From: Anaerolineae bacterium | GTDB lineage: Bacteria > Chloroflexota > Anaerolineae > Aggregatilineales > J027 | Assembly (NCBI GenBank): GCA_034437655.1 | Contig: DAOTTU010000046.1 | Location: 55,115 to 119,114 of the forward strand | DNA: 64,000 nt | Direction: 5' to 3' | Shown: positions 49,014-51,851 of the stretch, piece by piece | Position numbering within the stretch: position 1 is the stretch's first letter | Layout: each line of letters begins with the position of its first letter | The notes under the pieces: model-generated | What the model was told of the DNA's origin: nothing | The model's input: the letters and a program-made list of their open reading frames with translations, nothing else | The model's database searches: none | Position numbers and translations under genes: made by a program

Positions 49014-50114
49014 ATGTCTGCAACACTTGCTGAGCATGGCCTCTCGTTTGCCATCATCTTTGGCGTGGGGTTCGGGGTTGCCCTGCTGTTAACCCCCCTG
49101 ACCATGCGCCTCAGCCATCGCTGGGGCATTGTGCGTGAACCGGGTGGTCGTCGGCAGCACCACAAAACCATGCCGCTGTTGGGTGGGTTGGCAATCGTTG
49201 TCGCCTTTTACGCAGCAGTTGGTGTCGCACAATTACTCCCTGCTGAACGCACTGACCCCAACGAGGTTATCCGGCTGACCGGGTTGGTGCTTGGCGGGCT
49301 GTTTATCGCGGCGGTAGGGTTTCTGGACGACCGTTTCGAACTTTCCCCTATCCCGCTGTACATCGCGCAACTCATTGCGGCTGCGATTGCCGTTGCGTTC
49401 CTGATCTTCATTGAGGGTTTCAATAACCCCATCAACGGTCAAACGGTCACGGGCTGGCCATTTGTTGTAACCGTCACGATTACCCTTTTCTGGCTTGGTT
49501 TTATGATGAATACCGTCAATTGGCTGGACGGGCTAGATGGGTTGGCTGGCGGTGTCGCTGCGATTGCCGCCTTTATGATGTTCTATCACGCCACGTTTCA
49601 ACTCAACCAGATCAGCGTTGGGTTTTTGCCGCTGGCACTATTTGGCGCAACGCTCGGCTTTCTGGTCTATAACTTCCACCCGGCAAAGGTGTTTATGGGG
49701 GGTAGTGCATGGTTTTTGGGGTTTGCGCTCGGCGTGTTAAGCATCATTGGCGGGGCCAAGGTTGCTACAATTTTATTGGTGATGGGGCTACCCCTGTTGG
49801 ATGTTGGCTGGCAAATTGTGCGCCGCATCCTCGAAGGTCAAAACCCGATGATTGGCGACCGGGGGCACCTGCATTTCCGATTGGTGGATATGGGCTATTC
49901 ACAGCGGACCATCGTACTCGGTTACTACTTCTTCTGCGCCATGTTCGGCACTATCGCACTGATGACAACCAGCCGCCTGTTTAAGCTGATTTCGCTAGTC
50001 GTAATGGGGCTCATCTTGCTCGGTGCATTTGCGCTGGTAAGCTGGCAATACAGCCGCCAGAAAGCCGCGCTGGCCAATACCAGCCACGAAAGCGAACCCT
50101 CTACAAGTCCGTAG
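49014..50114 (+). CDS. MraY/WecA/TagO family UDP-GlcNAc:undecaprenyl-phosphate GlcNAc-1-P transferase
   Basis: PLLGG, GFLDDR, NTVNWLDGLDGLA, YNFHPAKVFMG, DRGHLHFRL; multi-pass TM. Confidence 0.9.
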   Translation: MSATLAEHGLSFAIIFGVGFGVALLLTPLTMRLSHRWGIVREPGGRRQHHKTMPLLGGLAIVVAFYAAVGVAQLLPAERTDPNEVIRLTGLVLGGLFIAAVGFLDDRFELSPIPLYIAQLIAAAIAVAFLIFIEGFNNPINGQTVTGWPFVVTVTITLFWLGFMMNTVNWLDGLDGLAGGVAAIAAFMMFYHATFQLNQISVGFLPLALFGATLGFLVYNFHPAKVFMGGSAWFLGFALGVLSIIGGAKVATILLVMGLPLLDVGWQIVRRILEGQNPMIGDRGHLHFRLVDMGYSQRTIVLGYYFFCAMFGTIALMTTSRLFKLISLVVMGLILLGAFALVSWQYSRQKAALANTSHESEPSTSP

Positions 50115-51123
50115 GATCGGCGGGCAGTGTGTGGTCGTCGTCAGTGAGGGGCAATTCCGGCAAGTCAGGGGGTGGTGCTGGCGTGGCCGGTGGTGTCGCG
50201 GCTGAAGACGGGGTGTTATTATCCGCTGCGCCTCGGCGTTGCATGGCCTGTGTTTTGCCAATGCCGGGGTGCCATTCGTCTGGCAGGGCATCGTGGGCCC
50301 GGGTAAGTTCTTCGCCACCGAGGTTGCGGGCAATAACTTCGACAGTGCGCGGCGAAATCCAGGTAAGCGTGTCAATCTGCACGGCACGGGCTCCCGCATC
50401 AAGGAAGTCGCGAGCATCGTCTGGCGTGTGAATGCCACCGCAGGCAATGATCGGGGTGTCGGTGTTGCTGGCAATTTGCCCCACCAGCCGCAGATTTTGC
50501 CCTTTCATCAAGCGTCCATACATCCGTCCCCCGACCAGCCGGCCCGACTGTGGGTCGCGTTCGGTGCCACGCGGCGGTGCAGACACAACCATTGCATCCG
50601 CGCCGCACATTTCAACCACTTCCCATAGAAACTGAGCCTGATACAGCGGCAGCTTAACCAACATTGGCAACTGGCACCGTGCCCGCGCTGCGCTGAGAAT
50701 ATCCTGAACCTCGTCGGGATGAACAAGATCATGCAAGCCCAGTTCAACGCCAACAACGTTTGGCACCCCCTCAAGACGCTCGGTAGTACGGGTGATGTCA
50801 TCCAGATTCGATGCAATCACATGTACAATGATAGGAATAGGGCACCGTTCCCAGCCGCGTGCGTATTGTTTCACGACACGGTTCACACCCGGATGCGGCA
50901 AGCCAGTATGCAATAACATACCGCCTGTGGTTTGCACGACGCGCGGGCCGTGGGCAACCTTCCGTGCTTTCGCAGAGACAGGCGCGGTCACGGCTGCACC
51001 GAGTTTGTCGAGCTTGAGTAAGTCGCGATAGGCGAGCGGGTCAAAGCCCATCATGCCGCTGGCAATCATCACCGGGCTATTGAGTACGAGCGAGTATTTG
51101 CCGGGGCGCGTAATTTCAATCAA
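50101..51123 (-). CDS. Dihydroorotate dehydrogenase (family 1B PyrD)-like flavoprotein with an eroded active site
   Basis: PyrD scaffold ([39 protein letters not shown]), but the catalytic NxSCPN loop is absent. Confidence 0.8.
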   Translation of the reverse strand: [340 protein letters not shown]

Positions 51124-51851
51124 AAGCGCACCTTCCCGAGGTCAAACGCCGGGCCATCAACACATGCTGCATGATGACTGACCAGACAGGCCATACAACT
51201 CCCCGTGCCACAGGGCAATGGATAGTCAAACACGCCATAGAGGAAGTTCTCGGGCAGGGCGTGGCGGATGTCACGCATGGCTCGTAGTAGATGCGTGAAA
51301 CGATCATGAGCCTGATAAACATCTGTCAGCACAAAAATCTGGTCTGCCCACAACACCGTCGCTTTGAATGATGGCCATTGCTGCGGATTATCACTATAGA
51401 TAATTTCTGTTTCGGGGGGTAACGAATTCACTGGATAAGCCGTGAGCATCCCCGCCGCGACCAGCGTCACCGAAACGCCTCGCCGTAAGGCAGCCACCAG
51501 CAGATAGCGCAGGCGCGTGAGTGGATAATCCTGCACGACCAGCAACAAATTACGGGTAGGGTCTTCGAGCGGGAACGCCGCCCCGACCGGGCCAATCACG
51601 CTGACAACATCGCCGGGATCAAGCCATTCGTTTTCGCGGCGCTCAATTTCAAGCACGCCTGCTCTGGCGTCGTAGTCCACTGGTATCCACAATTGACGTA
51701 GATAAGGGTCGAAGCGGTCTTCACGCCGCACCAGCAAGCTCTGCCCGGGTCGGAGCTGCTCAAGGGCATTATCTTCAACGGCTAGCGAGACGTGCTGCCA
51801 ACCGTCACTGATGCGGCGTACCCGTTCGATAATCGCGAGGCTTTCGCGCAT
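51120..51851 (-). CDS. PyrK-like (DHODH electron-transfer subunit-like) protein with a [2Fe-2S] motif
   Basis: PGQ, GPVG and C-terminal CGTGSCMAC..CVDGPAF. The FAD (RPxS) and NAD (GGGxG) motifs are degenerate. ATGA-type overlap with the PyrD-like gene. Confidence 0.75.
   Translation of the reverse strand: MRESLAIIERVRRISDGWQHVSLAVEDNALEQLRPGQSLLVRREDRFDPYLRQLWIPVDYDARAGVLEIERRENEWLDPGDVVSVIGPVGAAFPLEDPTRNLLLVVQDYPLTRLRYLLVAALRRGVSVTLVAAGMLTAYPVNSLPPETEIIYSDNPQQWPSFKATVLWADQIFVLTDVYQAHDRFTHLLRAMRDIRHALPENFLYGVFDYPLPCGTGSCMACLVSHHAACVDGPAFDLGKVRF

Follow-up and report, generated by a model that had tools for sequence, protein, structure and literature searches.

We describe a pair of adjacent genes, which we call K-like and D-like, in a 64,000-nucleotide stretch of an Anaerolineae genome (GCA_034437655.1, contig DAOTTU010000046.1); this whole stretch is the window in what follows. 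The names refer to PyrK and PyrD, the two subunits of class 1B dihydroorotate dehydrogenase (DHODB; DHODH for the enzyme in general), in which electrons pass from dihydroorotate to the flavin mononucleotide (FMN) of PyrD, on to the [2Fe-2S] cluster and the flavin adenine dinucleotide (FAD) of PyrK, and finally to nicotinamide adenine dinucleotide (NAD+). On the minus strand the order is dnaX, ybaB, K-like and D-like, all co-oriented (Table 1). The ybaB stop codon, TAG, is followed by 6 nt (GACATC) and the ATG of K-like, as read directly from the sequence. The TGA of K-like and the TTG start of D-like share 4 nt (TTGA), and D-like ends in a TAG at 50101-50103; the TTG start is consistent with the MIEITR N-terminus of its homologues. 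We see no promoter-like or terminator-like site between ybaB, K-like and D-like. A preliminary description of this DNA, made from its letters alone, had reported two full-length, mutually overlapping reading frames that begin 6 nt after ybaB, and the coordinates and junctions read directly agree with it.

Table 1. Genes and protein segments at the locus, in window coordinates
Feature	Coordinates	Strand	Remarks
Metallophosphoesterase gene	53873-54736	minus	Upstream of dnaX; PF00149; co-linear in the related loci L001, L002, L004, L249 and L250
dnaX (DNA polymerase III gamma/tau)	52271-53827	minus	NF004046, 465.6 bits against a cut-off of 400; TIGR02397, 423 bits against 250
ybaB/ebfC (nucleoid-associated protein)	51858-52250	minus	PF02575, 97 bits; TIGR00103 above its cut-off
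K-like gene, 243 aa	51120-51851	minus	PyrK fold with [2Fe-2S] site; only PF10418 matched
K-like residues 50-57, YLRQLWIP	51681-51704	minus	In place of flavin-binding RPx[ST]; Y50, W55 and P57 invariant, R52 in at least 90%
K-like residues 102-114, LLLVVQDYPLTRL	51510-51548	minus	Replaces the GGGxGxxP nucleotide-binding loop (HMMER alignment to 1EP1_B and 5KSW_B)
K-like residues 214-237, CGTGSCMAC...C.DGPAFD	51141-51212	minus	[2Fe-2S] cysteines C214, C219, C222 and C230; invariant in 48/48 members
D-like gene, 340 aa	50101-51123	minus	TIM barrel derived from DHODB PyrD, with rebuilt pocket, C-terminal extension and tail
D-like residues 66-79, substrate loop	50887-50928	minus	Orotate-binding Asn replaced by Leu71; new conserved His72 and Thr73
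D-like residues 125-136, shortened beta4 loop	50716-50751	minus	Glu127 kept; Asn132, Cys135 and Asn137 deleted; 72/72 members
D-like residues 181-203	50515-50583	minus	In place of INT...GGLSG; invariant P184, R185, G186, R189, G198, G199, R200, Y202, G203
D-like residues 226-252, CGGIH...DDARDF..AGA.AVQIDT	50368-50448	minus	beta7 GG phosphate motif kept; beta8 Gly replaced by Asp251
D-like residues 255-295, long-form extension	50239-50361	minus	Invariant columns W255 to T291; absent from the short form and from DHODB
D-like residues 296-340	50104-50238	minus	Pro-rich linker, LPE motif, acidic tail
upp (uracil phosphoribosyltransferase, pyrimidine salvage) and GT4-family (MraY/WecA-like) transferase genes	48384-50114	plus	Converge on D-like

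The D-like and K-like proteins

D-like belongs to the DHO_dh barrel family (Pfam PF01180, 86.1 bits against a gathering threshold of 27), and it scores below the cut-offs of the curated class 1B equivalog models (NF005574, 129.7 bits against 269; TIGR01037, 110.4 against 270). Members of a shorter form of the family, described below, are also far under the curated DHODH cut-offs (26/26). The AlphaFold2 (AF2) model of D-like has a predicted local distance difference test score (pLDDT) of 79, mostly above 90 in the barrel. The closest fold is the DHODB PyrD chain 5ue9_A (E 8e-20), the top Foldseek matches ranging from E 1e-19 to 1e-20, and chains of dihydropyrimidine dehydrogenase (DPD) are also found among the matches. 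Two other assignments were tried and rejected. The match to nitronate monooxygenase (PF03060) is partial, covering residues 169-252 (profile positions 151-223 of 331), and so is that to HisA/HisF (PF00977; residues 207-279, profile positions 58-130 of 228), for which the NCBIfam scores are more than tenfold under the cut-offs. Both matches are confined to the beta7-beta8 phosphate-binding segment.

The motifs of D-like were aligned residue by residue with those of L. lactis PyrDB (1EP1/5UE9), and the pocket columns were compared in 29 canonical DHODB, 46 long-form and 26 short-form sequences. The VKAT of L. lactis PyrDB becomes TAPV in D-like, MLNAIG becomes MLLHTG, MINT becomes VSAP, and the loop ELNISCPN…TDP is about 10 residues shorter and has lost the catalytic Cys. 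The alignment thus bears out the substitutions listed in the preliminary description (TAPV, the MLNAIG loop, SAP) and its loss of the catalytic Cys, and it corrects the size of the deletion, put there at about 12 residues. The loop with the catalytic base Cys135 (NxSCPN) is deleted in the window and in 72/72 family members; the Cys is invariant in the 29 canonical sequences. Asn72 is replaced by Leu71, Asn197 by Ala182 and Lys48 by Ala47, and Asn132 and Asn137 are deleted. In all, the positions invariant in the canonical set and altered in every family member are K48, N72, N104, N132, C135, N137, N197, T198, G219, S221 and G270.

The altered pocket has conserved residues of its own. Canonical A/S73 corresponds to His72 in the window (His in 45/46 long-form and 25/26 short-form sequences), I74 to Thr73 (Thr in 46/46 long-form, Thr or Ser in 25/26 short-form), N104 to His101 (46/46 and 23/26), G219 to Arg200 (46/46 and 26/26), S221 to Tyr202 (Tyr in 46/46 long-form, Tyr or Phe in 26/26 short-form) and G270 to Asp251 (45/46 and 26/26), while Glu127, the canonical Glu130, is retained. 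In the model, all the new conserved residues are placed at the C-terminal ends of beta-strands or in the loops that follow, that is, on the ligand-binding face of a TIM barrel. Judged by the alignment, the substitutions are not due to chance: they recur in 46 long-form and 26 short-form sequences at columns that are invariant in 29 canonical ones. Residues 181-203 may form a mobile lid, since AF2 confidence is low there (pLDDT about 58-60). The window D-like has a His, H77 (nt 50893-50895), at the Asn of GLPNPG, an Asn conserved in 44/46 long-form, 26/26 short-form and 29/29 canonical sequences.

Some of the FMN contacts are kept in D-like (ASG, the G229-G230 pair and Thr252), and others are altered (Lys48 to Ala, Asn104 to His, Asn132 deleted, Gly219 to Arg, Ser221 to Tyr and Gly270 to Asp). 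Arg200 and Asp251, both of them Gly in DHODB, sit in loops that in DHODB hold the FMN ribityl-phosphate, and the lysine of the VKL motif, Lys170, is K, R or Q across the family. By alignment, about half of the FMN contacts are gone, together with every residue that binds or oxidises dihydroorotate. With Lys48, Asn104, Asn132, Gly219, Ser221 and Gly270 all altered, FMN binding by D-like is doubtful. The preliminary description held that the FMN-contacting motifs remain, which is so for ASG and GGI and not for the variable VKL lysine or for N104, G219, S221 and G270; its FMN/Fe-S heterocomplex is for the same reason overstated.

In K-like, the Fe-S site is the part that is kept. Its Pfam match is to the Fe-S domain PF10418 alone (27.9 bits against a gathering threshold of 23.9), and it scores 28.4 bits with the PyrK equivalog NF000799, whose cut-off is 314. 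The AF2 model (pLDDT 92) matches the gamma subunit of sulfhydrogenase I (9nf0_C, E 8e-16), PyrK (5ksw_B, E 9e-14) and NfnA (4ylf_A, E 8e-12), with a TM-score of about 0.7 to 5ksw_B and 1ep1_B, and its four-cysteine motif aligns with the cluster motif of all three families. Compared with a PyrK encoded in a pyrC-carA-carB-pyrK-pyrD operon, K-like has YLRQLWIP where the operon-encoded protein has LLPRPFTP (RPF[TS] to YLRxxWxP across the family), and the Gly-rich loop for the FAD pyrophosphate is deleted. The NAD loop, iLiiGGGIGvpPL in PyrK, reads LLIAxDxxPTPL in the family, and in the window GGGIGvpP is replaced by VVQDYPLT. What the preliminary description said of this subunit, that it keeps four [2Fe-2S] cysteines and lacks RPxS and GGGxG, holds throughout: C214, C219, C222 and C230 are invariant, and the FAD and NAD motifs are lost.

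Family, gene context and selection

We counted relatives in contigs of one genome per species. There is a long form, to which the window D-like belongs, with at least 456 relatives, almost all labelled Anaerolineae or Chloroflexota, and a short form of about 250 aa, with at least 309 relatives, mostly Anaerolineales. The short form has the same derived motifs and no C-terminal extension. Together the two forms account for at least 765 stretches in species-representative genomes, nearly all of them from Anaerolineae, and among the 163 loci that we fetched no assembly has both. Canonical DHODB sequences enter the exhaustive search only further down, at about E 1e-26. The mean identity between long and short forms is 35%, and to canonical DHODB it is 32% and 27%, respectively. 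This slightly greater similarity between the forms, together with the derived residues and the loop deletion that both have, makes a single origin the parsimonious explanation. A large protein search returns more than 120 clusters 50-81% identical to D-like, with named members in Anaerolineae, Aggregatilineales and 'Phototrophicales'. In the literature, we found no account of this K-D family.

The names given to these proteins are inconsistent. D-like proteins are called DHODH, nitronate monooxygenase, HisA/HisF-related or hypothetical, and K-like proteins mostly 'hypothetical' or 'NAD(P)H-flavin reductase'. The mis-annotation as DHODH anticipated in the preliminary description does occur, at JGI and, for Aggregatilinea lenta, at NCBI. 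Three loci (L062, L125 and L193) bear labels from outside the Chloroflexota ('Bacteroidetes bacterium', 'Krumholzibacteriaceae' and 'delta proteobacterium'); their genes are typical of Chloroflexota families, and the labels are probably errors of labelling or of the binning of metagenome-assembled genomes. We also observe intermediate DHODB-like paralogues (P0304, P0322, P0323, P0326 and P0373) that have lost Lys48 and the catalytic Cys and keep GGLSGPAI and VGT/S. Because such intermediates exist, Chloroflexota-related metagenomes appear to hold several independent or stepwise DHODB derivatives. In one further protein, P0272 (570 aa), a K-like C-terminus (…CAGLAECGACAL…CQDGPVFD) runs on in frame into the N-terminus of a D-like sequence. 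The last 120 aa or so of P0272 resemble out-of-frame read-through, so that the fusion may be an artefact of assembly or gene calling, and we do not use it as evidence.

Gene context was examined in 83 long-form and 80 short-form loci. K-like lies directly upstream of D-like in 70/83 long-form and about 50/80 short-form loci, and this K-D pairing is the family-wide trait. The dnaX-ybaB genes precede the pair in the window and its two nearest relatives and in 10/83 long-form loci, the closest ones, and in 0/80 short-form loci, so their position is a gene order of one sub-clade, neither a family property nor part of a mechanism. The co-expression with replication genes proposed in the preliminary description is accordingly restricted to the window and its nearest relatives and does not extend to the rest of the family.

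The only recurrent third gene encodes a PIG-L/LmbE-family deacetylase that stands between K and D in scattered lineages of both forms, in 8/83 long-form loci (L003, L008, L012, L013, L016, L021, L025 and L033) and 24/80 short-form loci (within L084-L163), for example at 5089-5853 of L133, where the protein has an AHPDDE motif. The deacetylase scores best with the NCBIfam models BshB2, MshB and Mca, reaching about half of their cut-offs. The window has no PIG-L/LmbE gene. Apart from K and D themselves, no neighbour is common to more than about half of the loci in either set. The frequent ones, identified by eye or by Pfam, are PMT_2 glycosyltransferases, agmatine deiminase-like, PurB-like, SPFH and SelD-like proteins, GGT, Dtd and TrpRS, and these appear to be unrelated housekeeping genes. 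On the other side of the pair in the window, the GT4 stop overlaps the 3' end of D-like by 14 nt, and the genes converge in the same way in the closest relatives (L001, L002, L249 and L250). A defence-system reading was rejected, as no PADLOC match was found.

Both genes are under strong constraint. Selection was measured against the two closest relatives (81% and 73-81% identical), whose entire gene order matches that of the window. Even at this distance the synonymous sites are saturated, with a proportion of synonymous differences (pS) of 0.65-0.87, so we set exact dN/dS aside and used the proportion of non-synonymous differences (pN) and a rough omega. The pN is 0.11-0.13 for D-like and 0.12-0.18 for K-like, compared with 0.15-0.17 for dnaX and 0.11-0.20 for an M1 peptidase, and omega is about 0.04-0.09 where computable. 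Purifying selection on the pair is as strong as on dnaX. In the family alignments, 64 columns are invariant for D-like and 22 for K-like, and every one of the 83 long-form and 80 short-form loci gives a single full-length tblastn match. The orthologues are therefore neither rare nor frameshifted, two outcomes that the preliminary description had allowed for, and the dN/dS comparison it suggested comes out, through non-synonymous divergence as low as that of dnaX at saturated synonymous sites, as purifying selection. The K-D pair is a conserved housekeeping feature of the class Anaerolineae.

We also looked for canonical pyrimidine genes. When L. lactis PyrDB and a verified sequence of E. coli PyrD were run as tblastn queries, D-like was the only match in the window and the 163 related loci; this search covered the window and about 2 Mb of related loci and is uninformative for whole genomes. 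Near the pair in the window lies upp, which is convergent with it. A profile built from the nearest canonical proteins picked up DHODB of Chloroflexota, and the clade so traced belongs to the Dehalococcoidia, with no assembly overlapping those of the pair. A carA or carB gene lies within about 6 kb of 0/167 family loci and of 5/80 canonical Dehalococcoidia pyrD loci, a weak contrast; we dropped the pyr-operon context as a discriminator, given that canonical loci rarely have such linkage either. In one Dehalococcoidia operon of the order pyrC-carA-carB-pyrK-pyrD, an unannotated 223-aa open reading frame with no Pfam match lies between pyrK and the canonical pyrD (L167 5328-5999, also L168 2785-3456). 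The PyrK encoded there (246 aa) matches only the Fe-S domain, yet keeps RPFT.

The long form of D-like is distinguished by what follows the barrel. Its extension is strongly conserved (IARNLGGxELTRAxGALxDEWxPGxGxT) and is modelled by AF2 as a helix at residues 258-276, with low confidence afterwards. In many long-form relatives the protein ends at LPE. The acidic tail after LPE is found in the window and in 10/10 dnaX-linked loci (L001-L010), and among the other D-like reading frames recovered only in L044. This tail and the dnaX-linked position co-vary, and both may just mark one clade. The tail is superficially like the acidic C-terminal tails of single-stranded DNA-binding (SSB) proteins, and some relatives end in ...TDEF. 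The invariant Thr291 (PGxGxT-x-x-[MLI]) falls in a segment with AF2 pLDDT below 50. In about 13/83 long-form loci (L020, L025, L032, L037, L048, L050, L058, L062, L064, L073, L078, L080 and L083), the gene directly downstream of D-like, on the same strand, encodes a protein with two forkhead-associated (FHA) domains. A phosphothreonine with a hydrophobic residue at the third position after it is a typical FHA ligand, and a phospho-dependent docking of the FHA protein at Thr291 is conceivable.

What the pair may do

We think that the K-D pair is probably an obligate heteromer derived from class 1B DHODH, and that it is now an enzyme acting on a different small molecule. The pair would assemble as DHODB does, with the cluster of K beside the pocket of D. 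The keeping of both subunits can be understood because in DHODB stability and cluster insertion both require the two subunits together (PMC8097209). The rebuilt pocket, polar and rich in Arg and His (His72, Thr73, His101, the retained Glu127, Pro-Pro-Arg185-Gly, Arg200, Tyr202 and Asp251), would bind a different, probably anionic, small molecule. The [2Fe-2S] cluster could be a one-electron relay to an external partner, or else a structural or Lewis-acid element, and NAD(H) and FAD, possibly FMN too, would not take part. Complex formation, cluster occupancy, flavin loss and catalysis are thus predictions drawn from the alignments and motifs.

Several points weigh against this reading. The functional assignment is built wholly on sequence, and the argument that the pair is not the cell's DHODH draws on the loss of the active site and on nothing else. 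The gene neighbourhoods show no coherent pathway in the 83 and 80 loci, and there is no riboswitch upstream of the pair at Rfam gathering thresholds in 22 loci. A conserved pocket is also compatible with ligand sensing without catalysis.

Sensing is the main alternative, and we consider it unlikely. It would make K-D a non-catalytic sensor or regulator that binds a metabolite, or senses redox or iron through the [2Fe-2S] cluster, and signals through the C-terminal extension and LPE tail of D; in the dnaX-linked sub-clade its target might be replication or nucleoid proteins. The loss of the cofactor sites for both entry and exit of electrons (FAD and NAD) would fit such a role, as would the strongly conserved extension, the short terminal motif carried by a Pro-rich linker that is probably disordered, the downstream FHA gene, Thr291 with its hydrophobic residue at +3 in a low-confidence segment, and the acidic tail that co-occurs with the dnaX-ybaB position. 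Yet the short Anaerolineales form, which lacks both extension and tail, still has the rebuilt pocket and the K partner, and therefore the core function needs neither of them. No DNA-binding or signalling domain is present in the pair, and the correlation between tail and dnaX may be the shared ancestry of one clade. For the redox sensor named in the preliminary description we find no specific support.

We give little weight to the idea that K-D is a dead paralogue of the 'prozyme' type, modulating an active canonical PyrD/PyrK or some other enzyme. DHODB is built on a PyrD dimer, its subunits stabilise each other (PMC8097209), and there are known cases in other pathways of a dead paralogue activating its active partner; the old pockets of such paralogues, however, usually lose conservation, and here we find a new, near-invariant polar set. 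Both subunits have been duplicated and kept as an adjacent, translationally coupled pair, which points to a self-contained complex, and we see no linkage to canonical pyr genes in the loci examined.

A more elaborate proposal, which we likewise hold to be improbable, is that K-D has lost both flavins and has become a flavin-free [2Fe-2S] protein with a new His/His/Glu/Asp/Arg/Tyr site, serving as a metal- or cluster-dependent enzyme or as a sensor of metabolites or redox. The extension and tail of the long form would then dock partners, such as the FHA protein at a phosphorylated Thr291, and in the dnaX-ybaB sub-clade the SSB-like tail might dock replication or nucleoid proteins, coupling the iron or redox state to replication.

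That the pair is a dihydroorotate dehydrogenase after all is very unlikely, because the catalytic and substrate residues are all gone while the genes are conserved under purifying selection; the preliminary description had come to the same view. A genuine but unorthodox class 1B enzyme would have to work with other catalytic residues and another electron acceptor. It is true that DHODB is the closest homologue by sequence and by fold, that databases annotate D-like as DHODH, and that no other pyrD turns up in the window or in the roughly 2 Mb of related loci, a sample that says nothing about whole genomes. Yet Lys48, Asn72, Asn132, Cys135, Asn137, Asn197, Thr198 and Ser221, invariant in the 29 canonical sequences, are absent or replaced, the catalytic loop is missing, K-like has neither the FAD nor the NAD site, the score is less than half the curated equivalog cut-off, and 0/167 family loci lie beside carA/carB, this last point being weak given that only 5/80 canonical loci do. 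Finally, the loss of all catalytic residues and cofactor motifs might suggest a decaying pyrK-pyrD remnant, a reading excluded by the intact reading frames with single full-length matches in 83 and 80 loci, by non-synonymous divergence as low as that of dnaX at saturated synonymous sites, and by dozens of invariant columns, the four Cys included, across at least 765 species-level stretches.

The K-D pair, then, is a broadly conserved, uncharacterised and frequently mis-annotated DHODB derivative. Anaerolineae are abundant in soils, sediments and wastewater sludge, and metabolic reconstructions that count the pair as pyrD/pyrK may wrongly infer an NAD-dependent DHODH. The family is also a natural experiment: in an electron-transfer enzyme with three cofactors, the active site and probably two or three of the cofactor sites have been replaced, with the Fe-S cluster and the heteromeric architecture kept. 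Identifying the substrate would add an activity to the DHOD-like and PyrK-like superfamilies and would show what an orphaned [2Fe-2S] cluster is for. Since its position behind dnaX-ybaB is specific to one clade, the pair is not evidence that pyrimidine-like metabolism and replication are linked in general; it is of moderate interest, and matters more for enzyme evolution and for the annotation of Chloroflexota than for a replication link.

Comparison with known systems

The gene order of the window recalls the dnaX-ybaB-recR operon found in many bacteria, such as E. coli and B. subtilis. The dnaX and ybaB genes are adjacent and co-oriented in both, and the next gene follows ybaB within a few nt. 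In the window, and in one sub-clade only, that place is taken by K-like and D-like in place of recR, and a search with an unverified E. coli RecR sequence found nothing recR-like in the window or in related loci.

Class 1B DHODH (L. lactis PyrDB and PyrK; 1EP1-3, 5UE9, 5KSW) is the system to which the pair is closest. In both, adjacent genes encode K and then D, with the same two folds, and the pair retains the four [2Fe-2S] cysteines, the ASG and GG(I/V) motifs of the barrel, Glu130 and the GPxG turn of K. It differs in that D is without Lys48, the four substrate Asn and the loop of Cys135 (some 10 residues deleted) and has His/Thr/His/Arg/Tyr/Asp where the canonical enzyme has invariant A/S, I, N, G, S and G; in that K lacks RPx[ST], the FAD-pyrophosphate loop and GGGxGxxP; and in that the long-form D has a C-terminal extension of about 85 residues. 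D reaches 48% and K 9% of the curated equivalog cut-offs.

NfnA/SudB and the gamma subunit of sulfhydrogenase I (4YLF, 5JCA, 9NEZ/9NF0) show that the PyrK fold also serves other partners as their electron-transfer subunit. The C-terminal [2Fe-2S] module is common to them and to K-like, whose match to them is at least as good as its match to PyrK. They are FAD- and NAD(P)H-binding proteins whose partners are GltD-like or hydrogenase subunits (PMC8097209), whereas K-like lacks the flavin and nicotinamide motifs and has a DHOD-like barrel as its partner.

The reuse of the barrel itself has precedents in the pyrimidine-reducing domain of DPD/PreA and in the class-1A-like dihydrouracil oxidases of fungi, DHODH-like proteins that act on another substrate and have been mis-annotated as DHODH (PMC10395836). 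In all of these a DHOD-type barrel serves a substrate other than dihydroorotate. The DPD/PreA domain and the fungal enzymes are still FMN-dependent pyrimidine oxidoreductases (PMC10395836, PMC8097209), whereas D-like has lost the Cys, the substrate Asn and several FMN contacts; because these are gone, the chemistry of D-like is probably not pyrimidine oxidation at all.

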